Shown: positions 34,682 to 60,502 of the stretch, one piece after another
Numbering within the stretch: the first letter of the stretch is position 1
How the letters are laid out: every line of letters begins with the position of its first letter
Source of the DNA: Gammaproteobacteria bacterium
GTDB taxonomy: Bacteria; Pseudomonadota; Gammaproteobacteria; Steroidobacterales; JBCCMA01
Length of the DNA: 64,000 bases
Direction: 5' to 3'
Assembly (NCBI GenBank): GCA_045107005.1
Contig: JBGCFP010000003.1
Location: forward strand, 4,164 to 68,163
Notes under the pieces: generated by a model
The model's input: only the letters and a program-made list of their open reading frames with translations
Told to the model about the DNA's origin: nothing
Databases searched by the model: none
Translations under genes and position numbers: made by a program

Positions 34682-34692
34682 ATTGTATACAA
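34682..34692. promoter_or_regulatory. Operator-like palindrome ATTGTATACAA (site 1)
   Basis: Perfect TTGTATACAA 10-mer at 34683-34692, upstream of the TonB-dependent receptor gene. Confidence 0.55.
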
Positions 34693-34756
34693 CGTTTGCC
34701 CGTTGTCATCGCAAGAGCTTGTCAAAGCTACCAATTCCCGGTTAGTCTCAAGTTCA

Positions 34757-34768
34757 ATTGTATACAAT
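34757..34768. promoter_or_regulatory. Operator-like palindrome ATTGTATACAAT (site 2)
   Basis: Perfect 12-bp palindrome, 75 bp from site 1, upstream of the TonB-dependent receptor gene. Confidence 0.55.
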
Positions 34769-34949
34769 CCATCTGCGCAGCAGCGGAGACCGTCGCGTTT
34801 TCCACCATCACCTTCGGCTGGACACAGGATGTCAGGTCGCCAGCGGGTTGCGTGGGATGGCGTCTGTCGTGCTTTCCAAAAGTGCCACCTGCGCGGCCTG
34901 AAAAACGCCGTGACGTCAGCGTCACGCAGATAAAGTGAAGGGGACTTCA

Positions 34950-37454
34950 ATGAGAAAATGGGCAACAGGGGCGTCGCTAATGGCGCTTGCGGCGCCGATG
35001 GGCAGTTTTTTGGGGCTTGGTGTCGGTGCGAGTGCGCAGATCGAAGAAGTGATCGTGACCGCCCGCCAGCGAGAGGAATCGCTGCAGGATGTTCCAGCAT
35101 CGATCACGGCGTTTACCGAAAAAGATCTGGAACGCATCGGCGTACAGCGCGCCGAAGATTTCGTTGGTCTGACGCCCGGCGTTACCATCGTCAATACGGT
35201 CGAAGTCGGTGATTCGCAGGTCAACATCCGCGGGCTCAACGGAGCGCGTGACGGCGAAACGAACTTTGCGTTTATTCTCGACGGCGTTTTGTACACCAAC
35301 CCGAGTGCATTCAATCGCGAGTATTCGGATCTGGCCCAGATTGAAGTGCTCAAAGGGCCTCAAGGGGCGCTTTACGGGCGGTCCGCCGCGGCAGGCGCGA
35401 TCATCGCGACAACCCGCAAACCGGGAGCGGAGCTCGATGGCTACGTGGAGCTGGGCGCGGCCGAGTTTGGCACCGTGTCGGCACAAGGTGCCATCGGTGG
35501 CGCACTCGGCGGCAGTAACAAATGGTTTGGTCGAATCAGCGGCGACTATCGCAGCACCGACGGTTTTCTCAGTAATTCGTTTACCGGCGCCGACACCGTC
35601 AACGATTTCGAAAGCTCGAGCATCAGCGGCCGGCTGATTTATGAACCCACCGATAATCTGAGCATCGATACCAAACTGCGTTACGCGACGGTTGAAGCAG
35701 CGGCCATTGCGTTTAATGCGTCCTTTGCGCTGCCTGGTTTTGCGGCGGCTTTCGGTAATCCTGATTTCTTCGAGGATGCGAACAGTCACGATTTTCGTTT
35801 TTCGCCAAACGTCGATCCGGTGAACGAACAGGACACGATCGAGCTGTCGATCAAGGCGGACTACGACATGGACGTGGGTACGCTGTCCGCCTGGTTGCTG
35901 TACAGCGACCAGGAGCAGTTCTTTGTCGCTGACGGCACGTCCGGCGCGTTTGGTTTCTATTTTGGCGACCAGGCCTGTCTGGATTCGACGGCCGCGCTGG
36001 CTGGCACAACGTCTGTCCAGTCGCCGACGTTTGTCGGTGGGACGCCGGCCGGCTCACTGTTCCCGCCCTACAGCCCAACCACCTGCGACGGATACCAGTA
36101 TCAGGAGCGTAATCAGGAAGACCTGAGTTTCCAGGTGTCGCTGACCTCTCCGGGTGATCAGGCGCTGCGCTGGCAGACGGGTATGTACTTGCTCGATATT
36201 GATCGTCGCGTTGGTGTTGCTCAGTTGCTCGATGATGGCAGTGGTACCTTCCCGCAGTCGTTCATTAATGACCGAACGGATGCTCTGGTGCTGGACGATT
36301 TCAGCACTCAGGTTTTCGCTCTGTTCGGCTCGTTGAACTACGACCTGACCGACGACATCGAAGCGTCGCTGGCGCTGCGTTGGGATCGAGAAGAACGCGA
36401 AGTGTCCAATGCCGTGCCGACGCCGACTCAGCAGGTGTCGACGCGAATTAACTATTGCGCCAACACGCCAGCTGGCTTCTGTTCCTTCGACGGCGTGACC
36501 GATATCGGCGGCACGCCGCTCAACCCCGCCTTCATTACGGATTTTCAAACCGGCATCGTGACCGACACGATTGCTGATCGCGACCGCGCGTTTACGGAGC
36601 TGCAACCGAAAGTGAGCCTGAGCTGGGACGTCAACGATGAGCTGACCATCTTTACCAGCTGGGGAGTCGGCTTCAAGAGCGGCGGCTTCAATAACATCGG
36701 CGGCACCGAAACGATCCAGTTCTTCCTGGTGGACGGCGGTGCAAGTCTGGTCGCACCACCTGAGTCCTTCGACAAGGAAACCTCAAGCGCGTTCGAGCTG
36801 GGCTTCAAGTCGGTGCTCGCAGACGGTGCGTTCACGCTGGACGGCGCGGTTTTCAACACGGATGTCGACAACATGCAGTTCTTCGAATTCTTTGTCGGGC
36901 CGTTTGGTCTGCTGCGCGTTGTCGAAAACATTGACAGAGTGTCGATCGTTGGTGCGGAGCTCTCGGCCGGCTGGCAGGTGACCGACAACTTCTCGATGAA
37001 CCTGGGCTTCAGCACCATCGAAAGCGACATCAACCAGAATGACATTCGGCCGTTCACGGTTGGCAACGACGCGCCCAGCGTGCCGGGTCTTACCTACAAT
37101 TTCTCGGCGCAGCTCGTGCAGCCGGTCAGCGACAGTATCGATTTTGTCGGGCGGCTTGAGTACTCGTACGTTGGTGATACCTGGTTCCACACGGTGCAAG
37201 ACGACGTGGTGCCTGCCACACTGTTTGGCGGACCTCCGGCCGATTTCTCGCGGTCCCGGGTCGATGGCTACGGCATAACCAACCTGCGTTTGGGCATTGA
37301 GACCGACCACTGGTCGTTCACCGCGTACTCACGCAATCTGTTTGACACTGAGTACCTCGCCGAAGTGATTACGGCGCCAGAGTTTGGCGGTTCGTTCGTG
37401 CATCCCGGGGTGCAACGCACGTCCGGCATCGAAGTGAACTACCGCTTCGATTGA
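34950..37454 (+). CDS. TonB-dependent outer-membrane receptor
   Basis: Signal peptide. Plug motif EEVIVTARQREESLQDVPASITAF. About 800-aa beta-barrel with terminal ...VNYRFD near-terminal aromatic. ATG at 34950 with AAGGGGA RBS. Confidence 0.9.
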   Translation: MRKWATGASLMALAAPMGSFLGLGVGASAQIEEVIVTARQREESLQDVPASITAFTEKDLERIGVQRAEDFVGLTPGVTIVNTVEVGDSQVNIRGLNGARDGETNFAFILDGVLYTNPSAFNREYSDLAQIEVLKGPQGALYGRSAAAGAIIATTRKPGAELDGYVELGAAEFGTVSAQGAIGGALGGSNKWFGRISGDYRSTDGFLSNSFTGADTVNDFESSSISGRLIYEPTDNLSIDTKLRYATVEAAAIAFNASFALPGFAAAFGNPDFFEDANSHDFRFSPNVDPVNEQDTIELSIKADYDMDVGTLSAWLLYSDQEQFFVADGTSGAFGFYFGDQACLDSTAALAGTTSVQSPTFVGGTPAGSLFPPYSPTTCDGYQYQERNQEDLSFQVSLTSPGDQALRWQTGMYLLDIDRRVGVAQLLDDGSGTFPQSFINDRTDALVLDDFSTQVFALFGSLNYDLTDDIEASLALRWDREEREVSNAVPTPTQQVSTRINYCANTPAGFCSFDGVTDIGGTPLNPAFITDFQTGIVTDTIADRDRAFTELQPKVSLSWDVNDELTIFTSWGVGFKSGGFNNIGGTETIQFFLVDGGASLVAPPESFDKETSSAFELGFKSVLADGAFTLDGAVFNTDVDNMQFFEFFVGPFGLLRVVENIDRVSIVGAELSAGWQVTDNFSMNLGFSTIESDINQNDIRPFTVGNDAPSVPGLTYNFSAQLVQPVSDSIDFVGRLEYSYVGDTWFHTVQDDVVPATLFGGPPADFSRSRVDGYGITNLRLGIETDHWSFTAYSRNLFDTEYLAEVITAPEFGGSFVHPGVQRTSGIEVNYRFD

Positions 37455-37466: not shown

Positions 37467-37505
37467 AGGCGCGCCCGGTCTGGAGCCGGGCGCGCCTTTT
37501 TTTTG
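37467..37505 (+). terminator. Rho-independent terminator
   Basis: AGGCGCGCCCGG-tctggag-CCGGGCGCGCCT 12-bp GC stem followed by T8. Confidence 0.85.
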
Positions 37506-37539: not shown

Positions 37540-38118
37540 ATGCGCATTGAGGTTGGGATTCCCGAGCGCGACCGACGGGCTGCCGCGCAACTCTACGACG
37601 TCGCCTTTGGCAGCAAACTTGCGCTGGCTGTACCGGATTCAGACCAGCGTCTGGTTCTCCTAACCCAGTCCCTTTTCCTGGATTACGCCGTAGCCGCATT
37701 CGATGACCAGAAACTGGTCGGGCTGGCAGGGTTTTCGACGAGCGAAGGCTCGCTTACGGGCGGCATTGACTATCGCTCTTTGCTGCGTGAATTGGGATTC
37801 ATTGGCGGGCATAGGGCCGCGCTCGTGTTCAGCGTTTACGAGCGAGAGATCAAGCCCACAGAGTTATTGATGGACGGCGTAGTGGTCGATGCGCCGTGCC
37901 GTGGCCGGGGAATCGGAACCCAGCTGTTCGCCCGCATTATGGACGTGGCGCGAGAGGGCGGTTACGCGACCATTCGCCTTGATGTCATCGACACTAACCC
38001 GGCTGCAAAACGGCTGTATCAACGCCTGGGCTTTGTCGAAGGGAAGACGGAGTCCTTTGAATTTCTGCGTGGCGTGCTCGGGTTTGGGGCGTCGACAACG
38101 ATGATTTACACTCTGTGA
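37540..38118 (+). CDS. GNAT family N-acetyltransferase
   Basis: Acetyl-CoA motif A VDAPCRGRGIGTQLF and ...AKRLYQRLGF. Confidence 0.8.
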   Translation: MRIEVGIPERDRRAAAQLYDVAFGSKLALAVPDSDQRLVLLTQSLFLDYAVAAFDDQKLVGLAGFSTSEGSLTGGIDYRSLLRELGFIGGHRAALVFSVYEREIKPTELLMDGVVVDAPCRGRGIGTQLFARIMDVAREGGYATIRLDVIDTNPAAKRLYQRLGFVEGKTESFEFLRGVLGFGASTTMIYTL

Positions 38119-38166
38119 GACCGGCACGCAGATCGGCTTCCTGCCGGCGCGATATAAGGAATTTCA

Positions 38167-38601
38167 ATGCGCTCGTTGTCATACCCTGACTTACCCTCCG
38201 TCGCGGCTCTGTTGGCCGCGAACCAGCTCGATCCGTCGGATCTGGCGCCGGATGATATGCCCCATTTTCTCGGCATTGAGGTTGACCAGCGTCTGGTCGC
38301 AACCGGAGCACTGACGCCCATTGCTCAATTGGGTCTGTTGCGCTCGGTGGTCACCGCGCAAAGCGCCCGCGGCCAGGGCCATGCGAACAAGATTGTGCGG
38401 GCACTGGAAGCACGGGCTGTCGCACAGAACATTCATCACGTTTATCTTCTGACGGATTCGGCACGCAACTACTTCACAGGCATGGGGTATCAGGACGTGG
38501 CGCGCGAAGATGCCCCGCCGCCCATTCGGGCCACCCCGCAGTTCGAGCAGCTGTGTCCGGCCAGTGCGCAAGTCATGCTAAAAGTGCTAGCGCCGCAATA
38601 G
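38167..38601 (+). CDS. GNAT family N-acetyltransferase (ArsN2-like by recollection)
   Basis: RGQGHANKIV motif A. The C-terminal IRATPQFEQLCPASAQVM resembles ArsN2-type proteins. The subfamily is unverified. Confidence 0.65.
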   Translation: MRSLSYPDLPSVAALLAANQLDPSDLAPDDMPHFLGIEVDQRLVATGALTPIAQLGLLRSVVTAQSARGQGHANKIVRALEARAVAQNIHHVYLLTDSARNYFTGMGYQDVAREDAPPPIRATPQFEQLCPASAQVMLKVLAPQ

Positions 38602-38737: not shown

Positions 38738-39031
38738 CTAGTCGCAGACGTTAGGGATGCTGCTTGGTCCGGGCGGCAGGAAAAACAGCGTTCGGAGAAT
38801 GCCCAGATCAACGATGTTTACGACGCCGTCGCCGTTGAGATCGGCTTGTGCATCAGTGCTGAAAAACAGCGTTCTGAGAATGCCCAGATCGACGATGTTA
38901 ACGATGCAGTCGTTGTTGAAATCGCCATCGCAGGCGTTACCGAAACCGTCTGCGTCGCCATCCAGTTGGTCAGCGTTGGCGACAACCGTGCAGTTGTCGG
39001 CGGTATCTGGCGCGCCGTCGCCGTCCACATC
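38738..39031 (-). repeat. TSP3 + dockerin-like module, copy 4 (C-terminal)
   Basis: DVDGDGAPDTADNC..DADGFGNACDGDFNNDCIVNIVDLGILRTLFF..QADLNGDGVVNIVDLGILRTLFFLPPGPSSIPNVCD. Confidence 0.85.
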
Positions 39032-40645
39032 GTTCCCTGCCACCAGCACACGGATGTAGTCGCCCGGACTGCTGGCGGCAAAGGTCACCGATAGCGTATC
39101 GCCCGAGAACGACGCGAAGTCACCGGACTCAAGGCCGCGCAGTTCAGGGTTCAGGTATATCGCTGTTTCGTTGCCCAGAACGTCGCTGTCGGTCAGCGGG
39201 TCGGTTGACGTCGCAAGACCGAGAATTTGCCCCGGAAACGTTACGGTGCCGACGATGTCACTGACGCCCCCGGGATCGAACGCGACGTAGTAGCTGCTGA
39301 CCAGCGTGCCGGCCGTGAGTGTCGTGGACTCTGGATCGTCAATCTCGAGGTCTGCGGCCAGCGTGACATTTTGCTGTTCCTCAAACGCGAACAGATCGTT
39401 GCGCTGGAAATTGTCATTGCCGACTCGGCCGATGGGGTCACACAGTTGCAGGAACGTGCCACCCGCGCTTGCTGCCGAGCCGCCGGTCACCGTGCCGGTG
39501 AGCGTGACGTCTTCAGGTTCGCAGACGTTGGCGTTGAGGTTTGGTGATGCGCTACCCAACAAGACCCGCACCGAGTCGCCCGGGCTGCCCGCACTAAAAT
39601 CAATGCTGAGATTGGCGCCGTCAATTTCAATGTCGTCACCGCCTTCGAGGCCGAGCAGCGATGGGTTCAGATACTGCGCGGATGCGTTGCCCAGAAATTC
39701 GCTGGCTTGAAGTTCATCGCGTTCGGTAATCACTCCGATAATCGTATCGGGAAACGTCACTGTCGCAATGATTCGATTCGACGGCACCGGGTCCCATACC
39801 ACGTAGAAGCTCGATACGAATTCGCCGGCAGCAATCACCGTTGTTTCGTCCAGCGACAGCGGTTCGGCCAACTCGACGTTCTGCTGTTCTTCGAACGTAA
39901 ACAGATCGAAAGAATCAAAGTTGTCGCTGCCAACCGGGCCAATGGGATCGCAGATTTGCCGCACCTGGCCGCCGTTGGTGAATGCGCTACCACCGGTAAC
40001 GACGCCTGTTATGGTCTGATCTGCGCTACTGCAAACGTTGACGACTGTCACCGGGTCGACGCCTGTGACTACCCGAATGGCGTCGCCAGGCGACGACGTG
40101 CGCAAGTCGTAACTGATGCTGTTGCCGCTGATCGTCACAACGTCCGGGCTCTCCAGCGACTGATCGCCAATCGCGTAGTCGGTCGCGACGTTGCCGAGCA
40201 AATCGTCGGTTTCATTGAACCGCAACGTACTGACAATGACCCCCAGCACCGGTTCGTCGAACGTGATGCTGCCAAGCGCCGTGCGCGTGTTGACCGGGTC
40301 GTAAATGACGTAGTGACTCGAAACGACCGAGCCCGCTCCAAGGACGTTGCTGGTCAAATCGGGGGAGGCAATGTCCAGGATTTGGATATCCAGCAGCGTC
40401 AGATCCTGAGTTTCATTGAACGCGCGAACGTTGTTATCGTCGAACGCGTTATTGCCAAGTACCGCAGGCGGCGCAATGATCTCAAAAGTGCCGCCTTCGT
40501 CGAACGAGCTGCCCTCGGTCAAGTCGCCCGACACGATGTCGGCCGCGACGAGCGGGCTGGTCAAAGCGGTTAGTGCCGTCGCCGTTAAGGCGAGTGCGCG
40601 ACCGCGAAAAAAAACAGGGTCTTGATTGCAGGCGAACGGATTCAC
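38738..40645 (-). CDS. Secreted protein with three ~160-175-aa repeats of an unrecognised domain and a C-terminal TSP3 + dockerin-like module
   Basis: GTG start at 40645 with GGAGG 6 nt upstream. Signal-like RALALTATALTALTSPLVAA. The triple repeat shares NxF..D.F.FEEQQNV.L ... V.S.YV..DP ... VTFP..I.G ... LGN...YLNP...GLE..D ... SPGD.IRV. Confidence 0.8.
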   Translation of the reverse strand: MNPFACNQDPVFFRGRALALTATALTALTSPLVAADIVSGDLTEGSSFDEGGTFEIIAPPAVLGNNAFDDNNVRAFNETQDLTLLDIQILDIASPDLTSNVLGAGSVVSSHYVIYDPVNTRTALGSITFDEPVLGVIVSTLRFNETDDLLGNVATDYAIGDQSLESPDVVTISGNSISYDLRTSSPGDAIRVVTGVDPVTVVNVCSSADQTITGVVTGGSAFTNGGQVRQICDPIGPVGSDNFDSFDLFTFEEQQNVELAEPLSLDETTVIAAGEFVSSFYVVWDPVPSNRIIATVTFPDTIIGVITERDELQASEFLGNASAQYLNPSLLGLEGGDDIEIDGANLSIDFSAGSPGDSVRVLLGSASPNLNANVCEPEDVTLTGTVTGGSAASAGGTFLQLCDPIGRVGNDNFQRNDLFAFEEQQNVTLAADLEIDDPESTTLTAGTLVSSYYVAFDPGGVSDIVGTVTFPGQILGLATSTDPLTDSDVLGNETAIYLNPELRGLESGDFASFSGDTLSVTFAASSPGDYIRVLVAGNDVDGDGAPDTADNCTVVANADQLDGDADGFGNACDGDFNNDCIVNIVDLGILRTLFFSTDAQADLNGDGVVNIVDLGILRTLFFLPPGPSSIPNVCD

Positions 40646-40823
40646 GATGGACCTCCTGGTTATTGTGATTTTACAGAGGTTGAATGCACGCGATGCGTCG
40701 TGGCAGGCGCACATCAAGCCGCCAGTATACACGCAGACCAAAGGATGCCAGCAGGAGCAGGGCACCTGGCCGTTTATGTTGAAATGGTCTTCGGCAAAGT
40801 GCCGCCCACGTGCCCGCGTCGTT

Positions 40824-43650: not shown

Positions 43651-43941
43651 TTACGGGCAGAACGTCACGCCAGAAGGGCCTGGCGGTGCGAAAAATACCG
43701 ACCGCAACGTGCCAAGATCAATGACGTTCACGACGCCGTCGCCGTTCAGATCGGCATCAGCATCATCGCTGAAGAATACGGTTCGAAGCAGGCCCAAATC
43801 GACGACGTTAACCACGCAGTCATCGTTTAGATCCGCGTCGCAGGCGTTGCCAAATCCATCGGCGTTGCTGTCAATCTGGGCGGCGTTGTCGACCAGCGTG
43901 CAGTTGTCGATGTCGTCGGTCACGCCGTCGCCGTCACTGTC
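43651..43941 (-). repeat. TSP3 + dockerin-like module, copy 5 (C-terminal)
   Basis: DSDGDGVTDDIDNC..NADGFGNACDADLNDDCVVNVVDLGLLRTVFF..DADLNGDGVVNVIDLGTLRSVFFAPPGPSGVTFCP. Confidence 0.85.
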
Positions 43942-45207
43942 GGGCTCGTTGCCGCCCGGTCCTGGGTAAAGGTAAACGACACCTGCGCCGTTGCCCGCAG
44001 CGCCCACCGCGATGTGCTGGGCGCTGGCGGCGACATCGCCGCCCAACGCATCGTTTGGTGCGCTGTCGCTGGCGGTCAGAGACTCAATCTGGCCCCAGCT
44101 GTCGGTACCGGTTTCATTGCGCGAAAAAACGTAGCCCTGGCCGCGCAGTGAATCGTGATTGGACGCACCGGACACCAGCGTGTCGCCAACCAGAGCCAGC
44201 GAAATGCCGAAAAACGCCGTCACCATGGCGTCGTCCGCTTCCACGTTGGCGATCTCAATCCAGTCACCCGGTGTGCCGGTCGGGTTTTCGTACATGTAAG
44301 CGCGACCGCTGCCTGAGCCGACCGTGCCACCGAAATTCCAGGTGCCGACTGCAATGGTGTTGCCGTCTATCGCAATGTCCTCACCGAATTTTGCGTTGCC
44401 GCGTGGCACGCTGGCGTAGATGCGATTGGTCTGACCAAAGTTCTGCGCGCCGCCTTCGTTGCGGTTGTAAATGTAGAAAGCCCCTTCGTTGGTGAACTGG
44501 GTCTGGTCAAGCGCGTTGGCGCCAACCACGGCGGTATCGCCGTCGATCGCCACGGCAACGCCAAAGGACGCGTTGCTGTCGAATACGTCATCGACCAGGC
44601 GTTTGATTTCGCCCCAGTTGTCAGTGCCGCCGGTGTTCTTGTCGTAGAGATAGGCGAAGCCACCGGTGCTGCCCGAGCCGCCTTTTTGCGCGCCGACGAT
44701 GATGGTGTCGCCGTCGATGTCGACCGCCGTACCGTATTCGGCCAAGTTGCCAGCGCTCGAATCGGCAAACAATTTGCGCACGCTGGTCCACGAACTCGTG
44801 TCGCCCGGCGCGTGGCGAAACACGTAGGCGGCTCCTTGCGATGAATTGCCGCCAATGGGCGCGCCTTTCGCGCCAACGACTGCGGTATCGCCATCAATCG
44901 CGACCGCGATGCCAAACTGATCAAATTCGACGCCATCGTCGCTGGTGAGTTTCGCGACCTGGGTCCAACTTCCCGCACCGTCGGTTTCAAATACGTACGC
45001 GGCACCTTGTGTTTCGGCGCCGTCGATATCGGCAAACGAGGCGCCAACAATGAGCAAGTCGCCCGAGATTTCGAGCGACTCGCCAAAGCCGTCCAGTGCT
45101 TCACCGTCGTCGGCTGTAAGTTGAGTCAGTTCATTTATCGCAGCGGCGTGACAAAGTGGCAGGCAAGCGATCACGGCCAACAGACCGTTGGTCAGGCATT
45201 TGTTCAT
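43651..45207 (-). CDS. Secreted FG-GAP (integrin-alpha-like) beta-propeller protein with a C-terminal TSP3 + dockerin-like module
   Basis: Signal peptide MNKCLTNGLLAVIACLPLCHA. About 7 repeats of G.S(V/I)AIDGDT..VGA......G.AY(V/I)(F/Y). Confidence 0.85.
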   Translation of the reverse strand: MNKCLTNGLLAVIACLPLCHAAAINELTQLTADDGEALDGFGESLEISGDLLIVGASFADIDGAETQGAAYVFETDGAGSWTQVAKLTSDDGVEFDQFGIAVAIDGDTAVVGAKGAPIGGNSSQGAAYVFRHAPGDTSSWTSVRKLFADSSAGNLAEYGTAVDIDGDTIIVGAQKGGSGSTGGFAYLYDKNTGGTDNWGEIKRLVDDVFDSNASFGVAVAIDGDTAVVGANALDQTQFTNEGAFYIYNRNEGGAQNFGQTNRIYASVPRGNAKFGEDIAIDGNTIAVGTWNFGGTVGSGSGRAYMYENPTGTPGDWIEIANVEADDAMVTAFFGISLALVGDTLVSGASNHDSLRGQGYVFSRNETGTDSWGQIESLTASDSAPNDALGGDVAASAQHIAVGAAGNGAGVVYLYPGPGGNEPDSDGDGVTDDIDNCTLVDNAAQIDSNADGFGNACDADLNDDCVVNVVDLGLLRTVFFSDDADADLNGDGVVNVIDLGTLRSVFFAPPGPSGVTFCP

Positions 45208-45329
45208 TGGACACCTCGGATTGTGTGTTCTTATTTTTCTTCGTCGGCAACTATAGCTCATGCGACCGGCTTTTTGCACGATCGGCGCATCGCTGGTTTG
45301 CGTGCTTAGTACACGGTCGAGCCTCTCGG

Positions 45330-46547: not shown

Positions 46548-46556
46548 GCCGCCCCC

Positions 46557-46566
46557 GTGTATACAA
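46557..46566. promoter_or_regulatory. Operator-like half-degenerate palindrome gTGTATACAA (site 3)
   Basis: Core TGTATACA at 46558-46565, about 10 bp upstream of the CoA-transferase ATG, in the divergent intergenic region. Confidence 0.5.
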
Positions 46567-46618
46567 TATTGATATATTCGGCAAAAAAATCACCGAATAT
46601 CCGCAAACGATGGCCCAG

Positions 46619-50228: not shown

Positions 50229-51983
50229 CTATGCGTTGCCGCGAAGCTCGGCGAGGTTTTTGTCCACCGCTTCGAGAAACCCGTGCATATCGACAATGGT
50301 TTCGTTGTCCGGATCGGTGGTCTTGCCTTTGAGGTCGCCGGTGACAATGCCTTGTTCGACGGTATGGATTAAGGCCTTTTTCAGTGCGAGGGAGTAGTCG
50401 AGTAAAGCGTCGTTGTCTTCGCGCTTGCTCAACGCCTGCAGAGCATTGGCCAACGCATAGAGCAAGGCCGACGAATTGAACAGCGCCGTCTTGCCGTCGC
50501 TTTCCTGATACATCAGATATAAATCGTGCGCCGTGCCGTGTGGCGCTTCGTACAACATGGTGCCGTCTTTACTCTCAATGATTGAGCTGGCGGTGGCGAG
50601 GCTGCCACCGAGCGCAGCGGAGATGTCCGAGAAAATATCGCCGTCGAGGTTTTGCGCAGGATAGAGTGCGTTGCGCGGCGGATCGGTGATCATCTTTGTT
50701 AGCTGTAGCGACGGGCGCATGATCATGAACGAGGGCGGCGCTGTGTTGTTTGCCGCCAATTCCTGGCGGACTTCATTGATGACGGTACTGAACACGTCGT
50801 CATAGTCCATGTATTCGCGCTTGAGTCCGAAATACACTTCCTTATGCTTGTGCGAGGCATCGCGGAAAACCTGACTTACCCAGTCCTTGATTGCCGCGCG
50901 GTCGTTGGACATCAGCAGAATCGGGTCGCCTTCTTCGACCAGGCGCGCGTGCTTTTCCTTGCCGTCGACAATCACTTTCAAGATGCCCGCTTCGGCGGCA
51001 GGCGCGTTAAAACTGCCGTACTGGTCGCCGCCGCCGGCGCTCATGCGCGAAATAGAGACGTGCGCCTCGCGGCTGGGAATGCCGTATTTTTTCAGGTTGG
51101 TAACAAGCTTGAGAAGTTTGCGACCCGACGTGTTATCGGGCACACCCCACAGAGCGCGCTCGGGCGGGTTGGCGACGATGCGGGCGGCCTGTGCATCAAT
51201 GAGCTCGTAGTGATACTCCAGGCCCAGCGCGGCGAGCTTTTTCTGGTAGTCGCGTTCGTAGATGTCTTCGATGGCCTCGCGCATCACGCCGTCGTAACCC
51301 GGAATGACGGTGTCCTTAAGGCCCAGATAGACGTGACGTTTTTCTTCCAGCGCGCGTTTGAAAAACCGGTGCGCCCAGGCTTTCACGTTCTCGATATTGT
51401 TGGTGGCCAGTAGCCACGGGTCGCCGCGTTGAATGAAGCGACGATGCAGTTCGATTGGGTCGCCGCTGGCACCAATGAAAATCAGTTTGACGACACCGGT
51501 GGATTTCGACAGTTCATTGTGACTGTCCTTGATCCCACCATCGTCCATGGTGACAACTTCGATGTCGCGACCAACCCAGCCCGGCTTGCGCACTTCGAGA
51601 TTGCGAAACTGGATGTCTTCACGGGTGATGTTGCCGCCTATGCCCTTGCGGATGGCGCCGTTAGGAGACTTGGTGGCCAGCTTGTGCAGGTCAGCTTCCT
51701 GGATAGTCGGATTGGCGGCCAGCAGCTCGTCGAGCTGATCGCGGTTGACCGTCATGCCCGCATTTTTGACCCCAACGCCGTGCACCTTGAGCGCTTCGAT
51801 CGCGTCGACGACGGCTTGACCGTTGGTCAGCAGCCGGTTTTCGGCAGACAGATCAATGTCAATCAGCTCAATGTCCAAACGTTTTTCGACGAAGGTTTTC
51901 AGGATCAGCTCAAAAGCGACTTGGGCCATCTCGTCTCCGTGCAGGACAACGAGCGGGTTCGCGACGGTGATTTTCTCAGGCAT
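50229..51983 (-). CDS. icd: Isocitrate dehydrogenase, enlarged type II (eukaryote-like) form, probably NAD-specific (ClIDH-like)
   Basis: N-terminal NPLVVLHGDEMAQV and C-terminal HGTAHDLY type II IDH blocks. 584 aa, about 160 aa longer than ordinary type II IDH. Asp487-Leu488 sit at the cofactor-specificity position. Confidence 0.8.
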   Translation of the reverse strand: MPEKITVANPLVVLHGDEMAQVAFELILKTFVEKRLDIELIDIDLSAENRLLTNGQAVVDAIEALKVHGVGVKNAGMTVNRDQLDELLAANPTIQEADLHKLATKSPNGAIRKGIGGNITREDIQFRNLEVRKPGWVGRDIEVVTMDDGGIKDSHNELSKSTGVVKLIFIGASGDPIELHRRFIQRGDPWLLATNNIENVKAWAHRFFKRALEEKRHVYLGLKDTVIPGYDGVMREAIEDIYERDYQKKLAALGLEYHYELIDAQAARIVANPPERALWGVPDNTSGRKLLKLVTNLKKYGIPSREAHVSISRMSAGGGDQYGSFNAPAAEAGILKVIVDGKEKHARLVEEGDPILLMSNDRAAIKDWVSQVFRDASHKHKEVYFGLKREYMDYDDVFSTVINEVRQELAANNTAPPSFMIMRPSLQLTKMITDPPRNALYPAQNLDGDIFSDISAALGGSLATASSIIESKDGTMLYEAPHGTAHDLYLMYQESDGKTALFNSSALLYALANALQALSKREDNDALLDYSLALKKALIHTVEQGIVTGDLKGKTTDPDNETIVDMHGFLEAVDKNLAELRGNA

Positions 51984-52435: not shown

Positions 52436-52438
52436 TTC

Positions 52439-54196: not shown

Positions 54197-56179
54197 TCAA
54201 AACGGCTGGAAACCCTGGTCCGTGAGCATGTCCGGCGCGAAGTAGGCGTTGCGCCCCTTGATGACGTGACGCACTTTGTACAGCGCCGCCAGATCATCGA
54301 GTGGGTTTCCGTCTACCAGATACAGGTGTGCCTCCTTGCCAACGGTGATCGAGCCCAGCCGATGGTCTTGCTGCATGTGCCTTGATGCCTCAATGGTGGC
54401 CAGTTGCAACACTTCACTGTTCGCAATACCGGCCTGCGCGTAGAACATCAGTTCACGGATCAACGTAAAGCCGGGCAACATGTTGTCGGTGCCGGGCAGC
54501 AGGCGAATTCCCTGATCGTGTAAGAGGCGTATCAACTCGAGCGAACGCTCTGCAGCCGCTGCATACTCGGTTTCCTTACCGTCGTTGTAAGACGCTGATG
54601 CGATCGTCTGGCGACGTGTGTTCGCAGGGAGATGCTCGGCGATGTCGCGAAACACAATCGATGTTTTGCCCGGTTCGTTCAGGAACATGTTCATGAAAAT
54701 GGAGAGCGTTGGGTCCAGGGCGATGCCGCGTTCTTTCATCCCTTTGACAAACGCCCGAACCTCGCGCGACGTCAGGTCGATCGTGCCCGCTTTCTCACCG
54801 GGTACTTTGAATCGGGTTGGCGTACGTGTGTCGAGTTGCTGCGCGCCCAGGAAATTCAGCAGCACCATGTTGATGTGCGTGATTTCATCGTAGCCGGCGT
54901 CGATCGCCTGTTGCGCGTCCATGAACGCGGGCACGTGACCCTGGACTGTCATGCCGCGGTCGTGAGCCAGCTTGGCGAGCGGTGCTACCCAGTCCGGGTC
55001 GATGGAGCTATACAGCTTGATGCCGATGTAGCCGTGCTGCGCGTAAAACTCGATGTGGTCTTTGGCTTCCTGCAAGGTATCGGCCAGTCGCCCCGTGGGC
55101 GCAGCGAACTCGCCACGTTTGTCGACGAAACCCAGCGCGTAGACGTCGGGCCCTGCGATGCGGTCAAGACGCACGTCGCGGCTGAGTTTGGTGGTGACTT
55201 CGTGTTCATTGGCCATGTCGCGCACGTTGGTCACGCCGGACGCCAGGTAATTGAGGTAGCTGTTGGCACTGACGTGGCCGTGCATGTCCCACAGCGTCGG
55301 CAGGAGTGTCTGGCCGACGCCGTCAATAACGAACGTATCTTTGGGCAGCGTCACGTCTTTGGGGTACAAAGCCGTGATCTTGCCGTCAAAAATCGTCACG
55401 GTTTGTGGTTCGCTGAGCTCGCCCGTCAAGCTGTCGAACACGCGCGCGCCGCGGATAGCGACCAATCCTTCGAGCGGCCGTGTGTGTCGGTCTCGCTGCG
55501 CGGTGAAGTGTTTGTCATTGGCGGCAATCTGACGTTGTTTTAGTTGGCCGATATGGGTTTCGTAGCCTTTGCGGGTCATGCCGAACCAGCCGTAGTCGAC
55601 GCCAAACAGCTGTTTTTGGTCGTCAAGCCATACGTGCGCCGGGTTGGTGTCGAGGCCGCGTATGCCGTAGAGCGTTACGTTTTTGTCGCCAAATTTTGCG
55701 CTGTCCAGGACCTCGAGTGACGCCGTGCCGGTTGGCAGCAGAGGCAGCGCATTGTCGTCGGTGGCCAGGATCGCGCGCGCGAGCATCGCCATGAGTTCTG
55801 GGGGGCCGTTGTTGGGCAAATAGAACGCGTCGCCACCGAACGCACTGTCGCCTTTTTCGTTTGCTGATCTCCATGTCGCGTGTTGGCTGGAGGACGTGAA
55901 CTGTTCGTCGACCTCGCCTTTTTGATAGTTGACGCCCGTTACACTGACCTGGGTTGGCACTCCCTGGTCATTGATTACGACGCGCGTTGTGGTGGCGGGC
56001 CCACGGCCGCGATCGCTGAAATGAAACGCGATTTCGACGCTGCCATCTTCGTGCAACGTCGTGGTTTGCGCCCCCGAGGGCTGATCGATTGTCAACCAGG
56101 TGTACTCGAGCGATTCGGCGTGGGCGAAGGTCGTTGCGATGCCCGCGATCAGAAGAAGAATCCTGGCAATGTGGGTCAT
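54197..56179 (-). CDS. Secreted amidohydrolase family protein (metal-dependent hydrolase, TIM-barrel)
   Basis: Signal peptide MTHIARILLLIAGIATTFAHA. The LWDMHGHV H-x-H metal motif and later conserved His/Asp positions fit. Confidence 0.8.
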   Translation of the reverse strand: MTHIARILLLIAGIATTFAHAESLEYTWLTIDQPSGAQTTTLHEDGSVEIAFHFSDRGRGPATTTRVVINDQGVPTQVSVTGVNYQKGEVDEQFTSSSQHATWRSANEKGDSAFGGDAFYLPNNGPPELMAMLARAILATDDNALPLLPTGTASLEVLDSAKFGDKNVTLYGIRGLDTNPAHVWLDDQKQLFGVDYGWFGMTRKGYETHIGQLKQRQIAANDKHFTAQRDRHTRPLEGLVAIRGARVFDSLTGELSEPQTVTIFDGKITALYPKDVTLPKDTFVIDGVGQTLLPTLWDMHGHVSANSYLNYLASGVTNVRDMANEHEVTTKLSRDVRLDRIAGPDVYALGFVDKRGEFAAPTGRLADTLQEAKDHIEFYAQHGYIGIKLYSSIDPDWVAPLAKLAHDRGMTVQGHVPAFMDAQQAIDAGYDEITHINMVLLNFLGAQQLDTRTPTRFKVPGEKAGTIDLTSREVRAFVKGMKERGIALDPTLSIFMNMFLNEPGKTSIVFRDIAEHLPANTRRQTIASASYNDGKETEYAAAAERSLELIRLLHDQGIRLLPGTDNMLPGFTLIRELMFYAQAGIANSEVLQLATIEASRHMQQDHRLGSITVGKEAHLYLVDGNPLDDLAALYKVRHVIKGRNAYFAPDMLTDQGFQPF

Positions 56180-56299
56180 GGTGGCGCGTGCTCGTTGGGT
56201 TGGCGGATACCTCTACCTTAACGCATGTCGACACAAAAACGCTGGCATAAAAAAACGGCCCACAAGGGGCCGTTTTCATCAGCGTGCAGTCTTGCTGTG

Positions 56300-58252
56300 T
56301 TACGCGGCGGACTTCTTCTTGCGCGCTTTGGTCTTGCGCTTCTTCGTTGTGCGTTTTTTCTGGGTCGATGCCACTTTCTCAGCCGCGGTGACCCAGGTCT
56401 GGAACTCCGGCGGACGCGGTGCGGCGTGTCCGGTTTCCTTCTTGGCGCGCTTCTTGAGCTCTTCGATCGTGCCACCGAAATCGAACACCGGCGGCTTGCC
56501 GCGCGCTTTGCTGAGCTTGGCGCGCAGCGTGGCGGTGCGTTTTTCGTTGACCGTCATATCGTTATTGATGACCACGCCGTAACGGCGCGCACCCTTTTGC
56601 GACACGAGACCGGCTTTCACATCGAACAGTACGCGTTCGGGTTCGCGTTTGAACGGGTCGCCGCAGCCGCCACCGCCCCAGGTGTCGAAGTAGAGCAGGT
56701 CGTTGGCTTCGACTTTGATCCGATCACACTTGGACGGCAGTTTTTCGACCGTGCCGTCGGCGCGATGCAGGATTTTCTCCGAGCGACGACCGGGTTCGCC
56801 ACCGGTCACGCCCCACGGGTAGGTGAGCCAGCGGTCATCGTGAATCGAGATTTCGCCGGGCTCGAGGAAACGATAGCCCATCGACAGTCCGTTGCCGCCG
56901 CGGTGATAACCGGCGCCGCCGCTGTCGATGATGGTCTCGTATTTCTCGATGCGCAGTGGGAAATAGCTTTCCAGAAACTCGTTGGGCACGTTGGTGAAAC
57001 TCGGCCACAGCGAGTGACCGTCCGGGCCGTCCCCGAAGGGCTTGCCGGGGATGCCGCCGAAGCCAATGGAATAAAGCTGATACCACTCGCCGTTTTTGTC
57101 GTGACCCGAGTACATGAAATGCGGGCTGTCCGAGAAGCCGGCGCCGCACAGGAAGTCCGGGTTGCCTTGACCGAGCAACCCGCCGAGCACGTCGAAGATA
57201 CGGCCCAGCGCGTGCGTGCGACAGGACAGCGCTGCGGGTGCCTTGGGTTTGAGCAAGGTGCCGTCCGGGATGTTCACTTCCATCAGATCGTAGAAGCCGT
57301 CGTTGAACATGATTTGCGGGTCGAACACCATGATCATGTAGACGCCGCAGAACATTTTGAACATTTCTTCGTTCAGATAGAAGTTGATGGAGCTGATCGA
57401 CTGCGGGTCGGTGCCGTCGAAATCAAACTTCACCTTATTGCCGTCACGCCACATGGCGCACTTGATCTTGTACGGACCCATGCCCAAACCATCGTCGCAG
57501 ATGTAATCTTCGAAATACTGCTTCTTGGTCGGGATGGTCGATTTGATCAGCTTGGACATGGCGCGCTTGTTGCGCTCAAGCAGTTCATCCAGGGCCGAGT
57601 AGTAGATGTCGTCGCCGAAGCGTTCCGACATCTCAATGACGCGTTTCTCGGCCGTGCGAATTGCGGCGACCAGCGCATTGAAATCACTGCGGTTCCAGTG
57701 CGGGAGGCGGCAGTTGTGCATGATTAGGTCGAGAATATCGGTCTGCAGTTCGTCGTTCTTGTAGATCTTCGTTGGTGGCACGCGAATGCCTTCTTCGAAA
57801 ATCTCGCGAGCGTCGGTGGGCAACGAGCCCGGCACTTTGCCGCCCACGTCGGTCATGTGACCAAACATGGCGGCATAGGCAATCAGCCGGCCGTCTTTGA
57901 AGATCGGTCGCAGCAGCAGCCAGTCGTTAATGTGACTGACGGCGCCGTTGCAGGCATAAGGATCGGTGGTCAGGAACATGTCCCCTTCCTCGATCGTGCC
58001 GTCGTAAGCTTCTTTGAAGCCGTGAATAAAGCTGCCGAACTGGCCGACGACCATCTTGCCTTCAAGGTTGGCGATCATCGGAAATTCATCGTGCTGTTCA
58101 CGAATACCCGGCGACATGGCGGTGCGAAACAGCACGGCGTCCATTTCATGGCGTGCGTTGAGCATCGCGTTTTCAATGATGTCGAGGGTGATGGGGTCTA
58201 CGTCCAGACGTTTAAACGGACGGGGACGACTTTCAACGAGTGTAGCTGGCAT
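56300..58252 (-). CDS. hyuB: Hydantoinase B / oxoprolinase family protein with a poly-basic C-terminal tail
   Basis: DPITLDIIENA N-terminus and GGGGCGDP block typical of the HyuB family. AGGAG RBS. 22-nt gap after hyuA. Confidence 0.9.
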   Translation of the reverse strand: MPATLVESRPRPFKRLDVDPITLDIIENAMLNARHEMDAVLFRTAMSPGIREQHDEFPMIANLEGKMVVGQFGSFIHGFKEAYDGTIEEGDMFLTTDPYACNGAVSHINDWLLLRPIFKDGRLIAYAAMFGHMTDVGGKVPGSLPTDAREIFEEGIRVPPTKIYKNDELQTDILDLIMHNCRLPHWNRSDFNALVAAIRTAEKRVIEMSERFGDDIYYSALDELLERNKRAMSKLIKSTIPTKKQYFEDYICDDGLGMGPYKIKCAMWRDGNKVKFDFDGTDPQSISSINFYLNEEMFKMFCGVYMIMVFDPQIMFNDGFYDLMEVNIPDGTLLKPKAPAALSCRTHALGRIFDVLGGLLGQGNPDFLCGAGFSDSPHFMYSGHDKNGEWYQLYSIGFGGIPGKPFGDGPDGHSLWPSFTNVPNEFLESYFPLRIEKYETIIDSGGAGYHRGGNGLSMGYRFLEPGEISIHDDRWLTYPWGVTGGEPGRRSEKILHRADGTVEKLPSKCDRIKVEANDLLYFDTWGGGGCGDPFKREPERVLFDVKAGLVSQKGARRYGVVINNDMTVNEKRTATLRAKLSKARGKPPVFDFGGTIEELKKRAKKETGHAAPRPPEFQTWVTAAEKVASTQKKRTTKKRKTKARKKKSAA

Positions 58253-58273: not shown

Positions 58274-60331
58274 TTATTTGGCTGGGTTGATCAAGAGATT
58301 ACCGAGCTTGTCGACTTTGGCGACGTGCTTGGGAAGGATGACAGTGGTGGAATCCATCTCGAGCACCACGGCCGGACCTTCGATTCGATTGCCGGATTTG
58401 AGTTCGCGACGATCGTAAAGCTGAGCTTCGCGGTTCTTCCCGTCGACGAACACTTTGGTCGTCGCGAGTTTCGATGCGGCGGAAGGCTTGGGTCCGCCAC
58501 GTGGCACGCTGCTCGCCGCGATGTTCGCTTCCTTGCCTTGCGCAACGGCGCGCAGGTTGACGAGTTCCTTGTCACTCTCCAGAGCGAACGTAAACAGCTG
58601 GCGATGCATTTCGTCGAACTGGTCGCCAATGATATCGAGGCCCTTTTTCTTCAAATCCTTGATGTCGAAATCGACCGTGAGCAACAGACCCTGGCCCGCG
58701 TAGCGAATATCGACCTGATAGGTCGTGCTGCGATCTTTGGGTTTGACGCCTTCCTTTTCGAGGGTTTTCTCGGCCTGGCGCGCCAGTTTTTCGAAGATAC
58801 CGGCAACCTGCTTGACGCTGGTCTGAGAGAATCGTTTGATGAACGTGCGCGACGCTTCATCGCGTACGCGCGTCGTGGCATCGCCATAGGCGCACAGCAC
58901 GCCCGGGCCCGGCGGAATAATGACCGGCCAACTGTTCATCAGTTTGCCCAGCGCGTTGGCGTGCAGCGGGCCGGCACCACCAAAGCCAATCAGCGCAAAG
59001 TCTCGCGGATCGTAGCCTTTTTCCACCGACACCAGACGCAGCGCGCCGTACATGTTCTCGTTGACAATATCGACGATGCCAGCTGCCGCTTGCTGCACGG
59101 TAAGGCCGAGTGCTTTGGCTACCGGCTCGATCGATTTGATCGCCAGATCCTTGCGCACTTCCATGTCGCCGCCCAGACGCACTTCGGTGGGCAGGAAGCC
59201 CAGCACGACGTTGGCGTCGGTTACTGTCGGGGCTTCGCCCCCTTTGTTGTAGGCTGCCGGCCCCGGTGCGGCGCCGGCGCTTTCTGGCCCAACGCGCAGT
59301 GCGCCGGTGAGTTCCGGTACGTGAGCAATGGAGCCGCCGCCAGCGCCAACGGTACGCACGTCGACCGACGAAGCGCGAACCGTCACGTCACCGACCGTGG
59401 TCTCACGCCGCAGCTGCGCCTTGCCGTCCTGAACCAGTGCGACGTCCGTAGACGTGCCGCCCATGTCAAAGGTCAGCAGGTTTTCATAGCCCGCCTGCTT
59501 GGCGATCCAGACCGCCCCGGACACGCCGCCCGCCGGGCCACTCATCAGCAGGTTGACGGGCAATTGCTCCGCGACTTTCGCCGACGCCATGCCGCCGTCG
59601 GAGCGCAGGATGTGCAGCTTCACATCCTTCATTTTGCTCTTGAGTTTGCGTTTGAGATTCTTGACGTACATCGACACTTTCGGCGCGACGTAGGAGTTGG
59701 CGACCGTCGTGATGGTGCGCTCATACTCCTGCATTTCCGGAACCACGTCGGACGACAGCGACACCGGGATGCCGGGCAGCGCTTTTTTGGCGAGCTTGCC
59801 GACTTCTTTTTCATTCGCACCGTTGGCGTAACTGTTAATCAGTGACACGGTCAGCGCTTCAATGTTTTCTTTTTTGAGTGACTTAAGCGCTTTGGTCAGC
59901 GCCGTTTTCTTCAGCGGCCGAACAACTTTGCCGTCCGCGCCCATGCGCTCCTCGGCTTCGATCGTGCAGGCCAGTGGAGCCAGCGGCTCACTCTTGTTGT
60001 AAATCACCCAGCCGCCGAGGCCGCCCGGTACGTAAGAGCGGGCAATTTGCAGCACCTGACGGTAGCCTTCTGTGGTAACCAAACCCACTTTTGCGCCAGT
60101 GCCGGTGAGTACCGTGTTGGTGGCAACCGTCGTGCCGTGCATAACCTGGTTGATTTTGTCGGGTGAAATACCGGCGGTCGCGCATACGCGCTCGATGCCG
60201 TTGAGAACGCCGATGGACGAATCCTCTGGCGTGCTGGGCACTTTGGCCGTGTAGGTTTTATTGGATTTTTCGTCGACCAGCAGTAGGTCGGTGAATGTGC
60301 CACCGACATCAACCCCTAAACGATATGACAT
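58274..60331 (-). CDS. hyuA: Hydantoinase A / oxoprolinase family protein (ATP-dependent)
   Basis: YRLGVDVGGTFTDLLLVDE N-terminus and FDMGGTSTDV ASKHA-fold ATPase motifs. Confidence 0.9.
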   Translation of the reverse strand: MSYRLGVDVGGTFTDLLLVDEKSNKTYTAKVPSTPEDSSIGVLNGIERVCATAGISPDKINQVMHGTTVATNTVLTGTGAKVGLVTTEGYRQVLQIARSYVPGGLGGWVIYNKSEPLAPLACTIEAEERMGADGKVVRPLKKTALTKALKSLKKENIEALTVSLINSYANGANEKEVGKLAKKALPGIPVSLSSDVVPEMQEYERTITTVANSYVAPKVSMYVKNLKRKLKSKMKDVKLHILRSDGGMASAKVAEQLPVNLLMSGPAGGVSGAVWIAKQAGYENLLTFDMGGTSTDVALVQDGKAQLRRETTVGDVTVRASSVDVRTVGAGGGSIAHVPELTGALRVGPESAGAAPGPAAYNKGGEAPTVTDANVVLGFLPTEVRLGGDMEVRKDLAIKSIEPVAKALGLTVQQAAAGIVDIVNENMYGALRLVSVEKGYDPRDFALIGFGGAGPLHANALGKLMNSWPVIIPPGPGVLCAYGDATTRVRDEASRTFIKRFSQTSVKQVAGIFEKLARQAEKTLEKEGVKPKDRSTTYQVDIRYAGQGLLLTVDFDIKDLKKKGLDIIGDQFDEMHRQLFTFALESDKELVNLRAVAQGKEANIAASSVPRGGPKPSAASKLATTKVFVDGKNREAQLYDRRELKSGNRIEGPAVVLEMDSTTVILPKHVAKVDKLGNLLINPAK

Positions 60332-60416
60332 GTTGCGCGCACCTTAAAAATTACGAATTCGTATGAGCCCCGCACCGACCCTTATATAAGTAGTAGTGAG
60401 GGGCGAAGGAGCGAAA

Positions 60417-60430
60417 CATTGTATACAATG
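60417..60430. promoter_or_regulatory. Operator-like palindrome CATTGTATACAATG (site 5)
   Basis: Perfect 14-bp palindrome in the divergent hyuA / CoA-transferase intergenic region. Confidence 0.55.
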
Positions 60431-60491
60431 GGCGCGAGCTGATCTAGCCGATATCCGATATTCAGTCGGTTGTGCGGCGCACGATGCAAAG

Positions 60492-60502
60492 ATTGTATAC
60501 AT
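60492..60502. promoter_or_regulatory. Operator-like palindrome ATTGTATACAt (site 6)
   Basis: Core TGTATACA at 60494-60501, about 20 bp upstream of the CoA-transferase ATG and 74 bp from site 5. Confidence 0.5.

Follow-up and report, generated by a model that had tools for sequence, protein, structure and literature searches.

The repressor Atu1419 of Agrobacterium fabrum, a VanR-group GntR protein with an FCD domain, binds the palindrome 5'-ATGTATACAT-3'; its crystal structures show G3 recognized by Arg45, and binding is lost when G3 is changed to A (Vigouroux et al., PMC7797058). Atu1419 is autoregulated, uses paired operators 190 and 109 bp apart and forms a tetramer, with DNA loops visible by electron microscopy, and its operator overlaps the -10 box (PMC7797058). 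PmiR of Pseudomonas aeruginosa senses the hydroxy-tricarboxylate 2-methylisocitrate and is part of the 2-methylcitrate-cycle regulon (PMC9728974). Classical FadR-subfamily regulators repress catabolic genes until an effector, either a carboxylate or an acyl-CoA, releases them (PMC4494728). Here we analyzed a 64-kb stretch of DNA from an uncultured gammaproteobacterium (contig JBGCFP010000003.1 of assembly GCA_045107005.1; hereafter the window), which encodes a GntR/FCD regulator and carries six short palindromes. We consider it likely that the palindromes are operators of this local regulator, that cooperative binding on one DNA face represses a catabolic gene module, and that a metabolite at the metal site of the protein releases it.

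The palindromic core TGTATACA occurs six times in the window (starts at 34684, 34759, 46558, 46621, 60420 and 60494), and no further copy is present on either strand of the 64 kb. Four copies extend to TTGTATACAA and three to ATTGTATACAAT (34757-34768, 46619-46630 and 60418-60429), the last of these widening to the 14-bp palindrome CATTGTATACAATG. The cores form three pairs with core-to-core distances of 75, 63 and 74 bp. Mapping of open reading frames (ORFs) and Pfam domains placed all six in intergenic gaps, namely 34639-34949 upstream of a TonB-dependent receptor (TBDR) gene, 46548-46666 between the gene for CoA-transferase 1 and an operon made up of a hydroxymethylglutaryl-CoA (HMG-CoA)-lyase-like gene (HMGL) and the GntR gene, and 60332-60521 between hyuA and the gene for a second CoA-transferase. 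The initial annotation, which had picked out these cores by eye, was exact in their number, coordinates, intergenic location, pairing and distances, and correct in its counts of the two extensions. General AT-richness of intergenic DNA is the one argument for six copies arising by chance or as a compositional artefact. Dinucleotide-preserving shuffles yielded a mean of 0.11 copies (sd 0.35, maximum 2), and six were reached in 0 of 100; the sites are also conserved across loci, as described below. The chance explanation is refuted, with practically no probability left to it.

A position weight matrix (PWM) was trained on orthologous loci alone, with the window sites left out. The exhaustive scan of the window that the initial annotation had proposed gave 16.7-26.5 bits for the six sites and 12.4 and 11.1 bits for the next-best positions, the latter being in the range reached by shuffled sequence. 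Candidate extra sites at 15741, 14432, 30624 and 32384 were not accepted, since they score at most 12.4 bits, the noise level, and at least 14432 lies in coding sequence. The predicted operators, none of which is assigned a strand, are as follows (L numbers denote related loci and A numbers spacer alignments, both described below).

34682-34693: O1a, ATTGTATACAAC, the more distant of the two sites preceding the TBDR gene; kept in L001 and L086; 22.4 bits.
34757-34768: O1b, ATTGTATACAAT, 75 bp from O1a, with the TBDR ATG 183 nt downstream; 23.7 bits; sole invariant block of A4 (TBDR spacer).
46556-46567: O2a, CGTGTATACAAT, core starting at a distance of 10 nt from the start codon of CoA-transferase 1 and abutting the Shine-Dalgarno (SD) sequence; invariant in A2, with its geometry kept in L001, L003, L086 and L088.
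46619-46630: O2b, ATTGTATACAAT, 63 bp from O2a, with the HMGL ATG 38 nt downstream; invariant in A2; top PWM score, 26.5 bits.
60417-60430: O3a, CATTGTATACAATG, perfect 14-bp palindrome with its core 88 nt before the hyuA ATG; invariant in A3.
60492-60503: O3b, ATTGTATACATT, 74 bp from O3a, core ending 20 nt before the CoA-transferase 2 ATG and abutting the SD; invariant in A3, with the O3 spacing at 73-75 bp in L003, L087 and L088.

The outer flank of the CoA-transferase-side operators is asymmetric because each abuts the SD sequence of that gene, a position that is kept in the orthologues. The core with its G and C mutated reads TATATATA.

The candidate binding protein is encoded by the second gene of the HMGL-GntR operon.

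47572-48228, plus strand: GntR/FCD regulator resembling the VanR group, predicted repressor (Pfam GntR and FCD, PDB, AlphaFold2 model, orthologues).

The 218-aa protein combines an N-terminal winged-helix GntR domain (PF00392, E = 7e-20, residues 4-65) with a C-terminal FCD domain (PF07729, E = 1.6e-23, residues 75-200). In the AlphaFold2 model (pLDDT 92), the N-terminal part consists of three helices and a two-strand wing and residues 70-217 are all helical. DSSP assigned seven helical segments to this region of the model, of which 143-152 and 155-164 are short and may together form a single kinked helix; the VanR group has six helices and the FadR group seven. The best fold matches of the model are PmiR, Atu1419, McbR, TM0439 and AlkR, all of VanR type, with FadR far lower. 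Alignment with Atu1419 (6z74; E = 7e-17) revealed an identical recognition helix, SRTPVREAL. Contact residues E28, R39, T40 and R43 correspond to Atu1419 E34, R45, T46 and R49, and N129, H133, H177 and H199 to its Zn ligands N137, H141, H192 and H214. These DNA-contact and metal-site residues are invariant in 29 orthologues, and the effector pocket is predicted to hold the metal site of the VanR group, composed of one Asn/Asp and three His. The operator, ATT-GT-AT-AC-AAT, fits the FadR-subfamily consensus NyGTNxACNy / TKGT-ACMA. Gene and domain annotation identified no other helix-turn-helix one-component regulator in the window; the remaining regulatory genes are one extracytoplasmic function (ECF) sigma factor and one PAS histidine kinase.

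We then compared nine related loci, about 185 kb in total, in which the regulator is 50-75% identical to that of the window. Seven (L001, L003, L005 and L086-L089) came from regulator relatives, and L006 and L013 (50-53% identity) from a genome scan. Regulator relatives at 55-93% identity all belong to uncultured Gammaproteobacteria/Pseudomonadota. Conservation upstream of orthologous genes had been suggested as a check; all 32 exact cores in the nine loci fall in the same three kinds of spacer (upstream of the TBDR gene, between the genes for CoA-transferase 1 and HMGL/GntR, and between hyuA and the CoA-transferase 2 gene). In the spacer alignments, whose mean column identity is 39-66%, nothing but the TGTATACAAT blocks and the start codons is invariant. 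The distance within the pair between CoA-transferase 1 and HMGL is 62-64 bp in eight loci and 68 bp in L013, and that between hyuA and CoA-transferase 2 is 73-75 bp in four loci. For the TBDR pair it is 73-75 bp in three loci and 191 bp in L088, whereas L087 has just one exact site. The TBDR site of L006 is accompanied at a distance of 74 bp by a degenerate partner, TGTATACC, which carries one mismatch. TBDR orthologues of 70-78% identity are preceded by the site pair in L001, L086 and L088 and by one site in L087.

Several other features of the spacers and related loci were recorded. An A-tract, GGCAAAAAAA, lies at 46575-46592, midway between O2a and O2b; it is present in the three closest genomes (window, L001 and L086) and absent from more distant ones, and could be a loop-favouring intrinsic bend or a promoter UP-like element. 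A second motif, CCGA(A)TATCCG, which visual inspection had suggested for regions 2 and 3, was dropped as it is not conserved in the orthologous spacers. The 183-nt TBDR leader, which is not conserved in the spacer alignment, contains a perfect hairpin, CGTGACG-TCAG-CGTCACG (34909-34926), followed on the minus strand by a T run and terminator-like in that direction; no riboswitch or other RNA matched Rfam anywhere in the window. In L013, the adjacent variant palindromes TTGTATGCAC and TTGTATATACAA (16423-16447) lie far from the module and could serve as operator for a paralogous regulator of the GntR/HutC type.

To link the motif to the protein, we turned to 80 loci from many phyla, retrieved by peptide pattern, whose regulators are 29-53% identical to that of the window. 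Of the 65 cores found there, 19 precede the regulator gene by no more than 250 bp, compared with 0.95 expected (binomial P ~1e-19), an enrichment of about 20-fold; the association also holds in the 40 loci with a GC content of at least 0.55. Among relatives without an exact core, of actinobacterial and alphaproteobacterial origin, variants occur 125-267 bp upstream of the regulator (L015 9809, L012 9874 and L016 9735). GTATAC is kept in TCGTATACAA and TTGTATACGA and ATGTAGACGA is degenerate, while all three regulators retain the VSRTPVREAL helix. A scan of metagenome contigs blind to the regulator was also performed with the pattern TGTATACAA-N42-66-TTGTATACA and returned at least 120 matches, most of those listed being AT-rich noise or tandem repeats. 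Among the matches listed, 21 have a GC content of at least 0.5; in seven of these a GntR/FCD ORF lies no more than 2.5 kb away, and another three represent the orthologous spacer between CoA-transferase 1 and HMGL-HyuA on short contigs. Spacings in the 14 regulator-linked matches among those listed are 52 bp (seven), 62 bp (two), 64 bp (four) and 72 bp (one). At a period of 10.5 bp, these 14 listed matches are strongly phased (vector strength R = 0.88; Rayleigh p ~2e-5, an optimistic value as some of them are related to each other). By comparison, the 80 unlinked matches among those listed are uniformly spaced (R = 0.16).

These data bear on whether some other transcription factor, encoded elsewhere in the genome, binds the palindromes while the adjacent GntR protein is a passenger or controls something else. 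Only 64 kb of the genome are visible, and several transcription factor families can recognize short AT-rich palindromes, which leaves such a factor conceivable. The 20-fold enrichment, however, lies just upstream of the genes of regulator relatives in unrelated phyla, and the regulator-blind scan recovered the motif beside GntR/FCD genes. Moreover, crystal structures show Atu1419 bound to the same core, and the window protein shares its recognition helix without a difference. One site pair is also present in the promoter region of the regulator gene itself in all orthologues but L087, where there is one exact site. We consider a foreign factor very unlikely.

With the local GntR protein as the probable ligand of the sites, the following mechanism can be proposed. 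In the effector-free state, a dimer of the regulator would bind each palindrome through its recognition helix, VSRTPVREAL, and Arg39 would read the G of TGT by analogy with Atu1419. The paired operators are an integral number of turns apart (about six or seven) and hence on the same DNA face. Each pair is probably occupied cooperatively, either by a looping tetramer or by two interacting dimers, both of which are deduced only from the spacing; for looping specifically, we estimate a chance close to, though slightly short of, even. Bound regulator would repress the three promoter regions, of TBDR, of CoA-transferase 1 and HMGL-GntR, and of hyuAB and CoA-transferase 2, and through the second of these would control its own gene. 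Repression would be relieved when a carboxylate-type pathway metabolite occupies the FCD metal site (Asn129, His133, His177 and His199). The comparative evidence makes it most likely, as initially proposed, that the GntR protein autoregulates and co-regulates the TBDR, HMGL, both CoA-transferases and HyuAB.

The sign of regulation is suggested by O2a and O3b, which abut the SD sequences of the CoA-transferase genes (10 and 20 nt from the start codons). A protein bound there would cover the transcription start or a position downstream of it and would be expected to repress. If the local regulator acted instead as an activator or a dual regulator, the distal sites, O1a and, relative to CoA-transferase 2, O3a, would be where activators often bind. 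Some FadR-subfamily members do activate transcription, as FadR does on fabA. Activation is difficult to reconcile with the location of the proximal operators at both CoA-transferase genes. The studied relative with the same operator, Atu1419, is in addition a repressor (PMC7797058), and catabolic FCD regulators are typically repressors released by an effector (PMC4494728). An activating or dual role is improbable, and simple repression is preferred.

It is also conceivable that the conserved blocks are mainly elements of divergent promoters rather than protein operators. The palindrome contains the -10 hexamer TACAAT on both strands, and the only promoter-like matches in a consensus scan use the palindrome as the -10 element. 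This explanation accounts neither for the invariance of a 10-12-bp palindrome, nor for two phased copies per region, nor for the association with one regulator clade. Furthermore, a -10 element in the copy 10 nt from the start codon would leave no room for an SD sequence. Given that the Atu1419 operator also overlaps a -10 box (PMC7797058), the two roles are compatible, and operator and -10 element may coincide here as well. That the blocks are promoters in the main is highly improbable, more so than recognition by a foreign factor, and we retain them as operators.

Several points weigh against our interpretation. Distances of 68 bp (L013) and 191 bp (L088) and single sites (L087 and Sphingomonadales) break a simple phase rule, and the orthologous loci are not statistically independent. 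Conservation of the palindrome, with its TACAAT on both strands, could partly reflect a -10 role, and none of the sigma-70 promoter candidates from the consensus scan was both convincing and correctly oriented. PmiR, the best PDB sequence match of the regulator, is reported to recognize very different DNA (PMC9728974). A 63-bp loop would be tight for a tetramer whose DNA-binding dimers are ~10 nm apart. No RNA runs contained the window sequence; the matching runs are DNA only, from 'plant metagenome' samples. The site scan of the host genome covers the 64-kb window only. Lastly, the peptide patterns used to fetch the 80 distant loci included the recognition helix, VSRTPVREA; the result is therefore an association of helix with motif, and not an unbiased family sample or a property of all FCD regulators.

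The genes of the predicted regulon and the terminators that delimit them are listed here.

34950-37454, plus strand: TBDR with Plug and barrel (Pfam); predicted regulon member, monocistronic.
37467-37505, plus strand: intrinsic terminator after the TBDR gene; 13-bp stem with 11 G-C pairs, then T8.
45330-46547, minus strand: family-III CoA-transferase 1 (Pfam, NCBIfam, PDB); core module member.
46667-47572, plus strand: HMGL (Pfam HMGL-like), heading the HMGL-GntR operon.
56249-56277, minus strand: intrinsic terminator after hyuB; 11-bp stem and U run; folding free energy -22.7 kcal/mol, z = -4.5.
56300-58252, minus strand: hyuB (Pfam Hydantoinase_B), predicted regulon member.
58274-60331, minus strand: hyuA (Pfam Hydantoinase_A), leading the hyuAB operon.
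60522-61709, plus strand: family-III CoA-transferase 2 (Pfam, PDB, synteny).

Pfam searches upheld every gene identity given before, comprising the TBDR, the two family-III CoA-transferases, the HMGL-like protein, the GntR and FCD regulator, HyuA, HyuB and an amidohydrolase. The regulator ATG overlaps the HMGL stop codon (TGATG), which places the regulator in an operon headed by one site pair and indicates co-transcription and autoregulation. The strong terminator 3' of the TBDR gene puts the two GNAT genes at 37540-38601 outside the regulon, ruling them out as part of a TBDR operon. The amidohydrolase (54197-56179) that the initial annotation had entertained as a possible regulon member was likewise rejected. 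It lies beyond the strong terminator after hyuB and is missing beside hyuB in L003, L087 and L088, where hyuB is 88-89% identical; this gene, whose product has a signal-peptide-like N-terminus, is probably outside the regulon. No terminator was found between the GntR gene and a downstream gene for a secreted protein with thrombospondin type-3 (TSP3) repeats, and read-through into the latter is possible. CoA-transferase 1 is 57-92% identical across the related loci having the module, and its best structural relatives in the PDB include SUGCT-like and formyl-CoA-transferase-like enzymes. CoA-transferase 2, judged from synteny, is in the regulon only within the window's own gammaproteobacterial clade. 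HMGL scores 271.6 against NCBIfam PRK05692 (cut-off 246) and matches HMG-CoA lyases in the PDB at 8e-61. For hyuB, the nearest NCBIfam model is caprolactamase beta, at a score under its cut-off.

The genes that span 26 kb in the window fit within 8 kb in L003, L087 and L088. L005 has a single divergon, TBDR-isochorismatase-CoA-transferase facing HMGL-HyuA-HyuB-GntR; L006 and L013 share this type, with no isochorismatase detected in either. The module of GntR, CoA-transferase, HMGL, HyuA and HyuB, with the TBDR added in Gram-negatives, was found again in other groups. These include Sphingomonadales (L017, L019, L020 of Erythrobacter ramosus, L026 and L027), where TGTATACA precedes both the regulator gene and the HMGL operon, Actinobacteria (L011, L015 and L016) and Steroidobacteraceae. 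TBDR orthologues at 41-43% identity adjoin the module in Sphingomonadales and Steroidobacteraceae. The operon of L020 runs on into an isochorismatase-family hydrolase and two amidohydrolases, and an Asp/Glu/hydantoin racemase adjoins its TBDR gene. GntR, CoA-transferase and HMGL with no HyuAB match were found in L018 (Nocardioides) and in Halomonas L014 and L021, where only these three are present. This recurrence supports a predicted functional link among the regulon genes. A different gene set accompanies the regulator in L089 (2536-9834), from a Xanthomonadales metagenome-assembled genome. This locus has a 56%-identical regulator, the conserved 64-bp site pair and no HyuAB; its genes encode a CoA-transferase, an HMG-CoA-synthase-like protein, the large and small subunits of an aconitase/LeuCD-like enzyme and another CoA-transferase, the last accompanied by an HMGL-like gene. 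This gene set hints at an HMG- or citramalate-type acid, common to L089 and the module, as the effector.

The regulon may import and degrade a nutrient, and we assign its pathway with low confidence. Among PDB entries, HyuA ranks closest to N-methylhydantoinase (8e-133), then to a chain of 6yra (1e-111), with acetophenone and acetone carboxylases far behind. The 6yra chain is titled 5-oxoprolinase in the PDB, and we take it to be a caprolactamase; NCBIfam likewise ranks caprolactamase first. No third subunit is present. Because of the hydantoinase-type ranking and the lack of this subunit, an ATP-dependent cyclic-amide hydrolase is favoured for HyuAB. CoA-transferase 1 resembles succinate-hydroxymethylglutarate, succinate-glutarate and mesaconate CoA-transferases (NCBIfam, PDB). 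A possible pathway would begin with ATP-dependent ring opening of a cyclic amide, imide or hydantoin by HyuAB, after which an isochorismatase-family enzyme, found in many loci, could provide an amidase step. The family-III CoA-transferase would turn the resulting hydroxy-(di)carboxylate into a CoA thioester, which the HMG-CoA-lyase-type enzyme would split to acetyl-CoA and a carbonyl compound. An acetone-carboxylase-type HyuAB, converting 3-hydroxyisovalerate via acetone to acetoacetate, was rejected on the grounds that HyuA is far closer to N-methylhydantoinase and 6yra and that the third subunit is missing. A creatinine/N-methylhydantoin route fits HyuAB, the isochorismatase and the amidohydrolase but leaves the universally conserved CoA-transferase and lyase unexplained.

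A literature search found no paper describing a cluster of HyuAB, CoA-transferase and HMGL. Somewhat short of an even chance, in our view, is the broader proposal of an uncharacterized, multi-phylum catabolic module for an N-heterocyclic or hydroxy-dicarboxylate nutrient, in which TBDR uptake, HyuAB, a SUGCT-like CoA-transferase and an HMGL-type enzyme would often be joined by isochorismatase-family amidases, a racemase and amidohydrolases. We give the same tentative weight to a separate proposal, that strictly phased operator pairs, 5, 6 or 7 turns apart, are the general mode of binding in this VanR-like clade. The initial suggestion of one substrate class is plausible because the genes cluster conservedly.

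Other features of the window and related loci were also noted. Genes for large secreted repeat proteins are unusually dense (1585-5532, 13081-15675, 38738-40765, 43651-45279 and 48304-49526; FG-GAP, BNR/sortilin-like and TSP3 repeats and DUF7948), one of them directly downstream of the GntR gene. An isocitrate-dehydrogenase (IDH)-like protein of 584 aa is encoded on the minus strand at 50229-51983. NADP-IDH models match its residues ~3-271 and 361-577 separately, and its size is kept in related genomes (581-582 aa in L001, L002 and L086), compared with ~400 aa for a normal IDH, which suggests a large insertion or rearrangement. Beside the TBDR gene lies a light-related cluster (25491-28175 and 32956-34638), conserved at L086 569-4891 and made up of a photolyase, a DPRP cryptochrome-like protein and an ECF sigma factor that is followed by an unannotated ORF (possibly an anti-sigma factor). 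In L003 and L088, light-harvesting LHC and PucC genes lie between those for the TBDR and CoA-transferase 1. From this cluster and the LHC/PucC genes in related genomes, the lineage probably includes aerobic anoxygenic phototrophs.

The analysis provides a confident, testable regulon for an uncultured gammaproteobacterium and ties a TBDR to a defined enzyme set. The phased pairs of 52, 63 and 74 bp point to cooperative binding or looping, which has been shown for one GntR protein and may be common in its subgroup; if true, a tetramer/looping mechanism reported so far only for Atu1419 would be widespread. The module and operator also occur in cultured bacteria such as Erythrobacter ramosus, in which screens for the regulator's effector or for induction could reveal the substrate.

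Among known systems, the LacI-type looping repressors share same-face operator pairs that flank or overlap the promoter and are expected to repress cooperatively. They belong to an unrelated protein family, however, and looping here is deduced only from spacing statistics. Bacillus subtilis GntR, the founding member, represses the gluconate operon and is released by the pathway substrate; the gnt operator contains the core TTGTATACAA, and paired, phased sites are not known for this protein. FadR-subfamily operators (FadR, DgoR, ExuR/UxuR, LldR and PdhR; PMC4494728) resemble those described here in their TKGT/ACMA boxes in an A/T-rich setting. The gap between GT and AC is mostly 3 nt in that subfamily, whereas it is 2 nt here (GT-AT-AC), and the FadR group has a seven-helix FCD domain that matches the model much more poorly. 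UxuR/ExuR, originally cited as the precedent, is accordingly a looser analogy than Atu1419 of the VanR group, which is closest. PmiR (PDB 7xp0 and 7xp1; PMC9728974) is the best PDB match in both sequence (8e-23) and fold, and a hydroxy-carboxylate effector is plausible here because PmiR senses a hydroxy-tricarboxylate, but its recognition helix reads ISRGPLREAI instead of SRTPVREAL.

The comparison with Atu1419 is the most detailed. Both proteins have the same domain architecture (Atu1419, PDB 6z74 and 6za3). The core TGTATACA is common to the Atu1419 operator ATGTATACAT and the predicted operator ATTGTATACAAT of the window, and both systems have two operators per regulated region and autoregulation from a divergent promoter region, as a prediction in the case of the window. 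Identity is only 26-27%, however, and the gene context differs, so that the two are not orthologues. Atu1419 controls hydroxycinnamate/tetrahydrofolate (THF)-linked genes and responds to N5,N10-methylene-THF. The two operators of a pair are separated by 190 and 109 bp in its case, compared with 52-75 bp (5-7 helical turns) here; the window protein is 32 residues shorter, and tetramer and looping, observed for Atu1419, are deduced here from spacing. The window regulator would work like Atu1419 without being its orthologue, as an ordinary bacterial gene switch of a kind already demonstrated for the related Agrobacterium protein.

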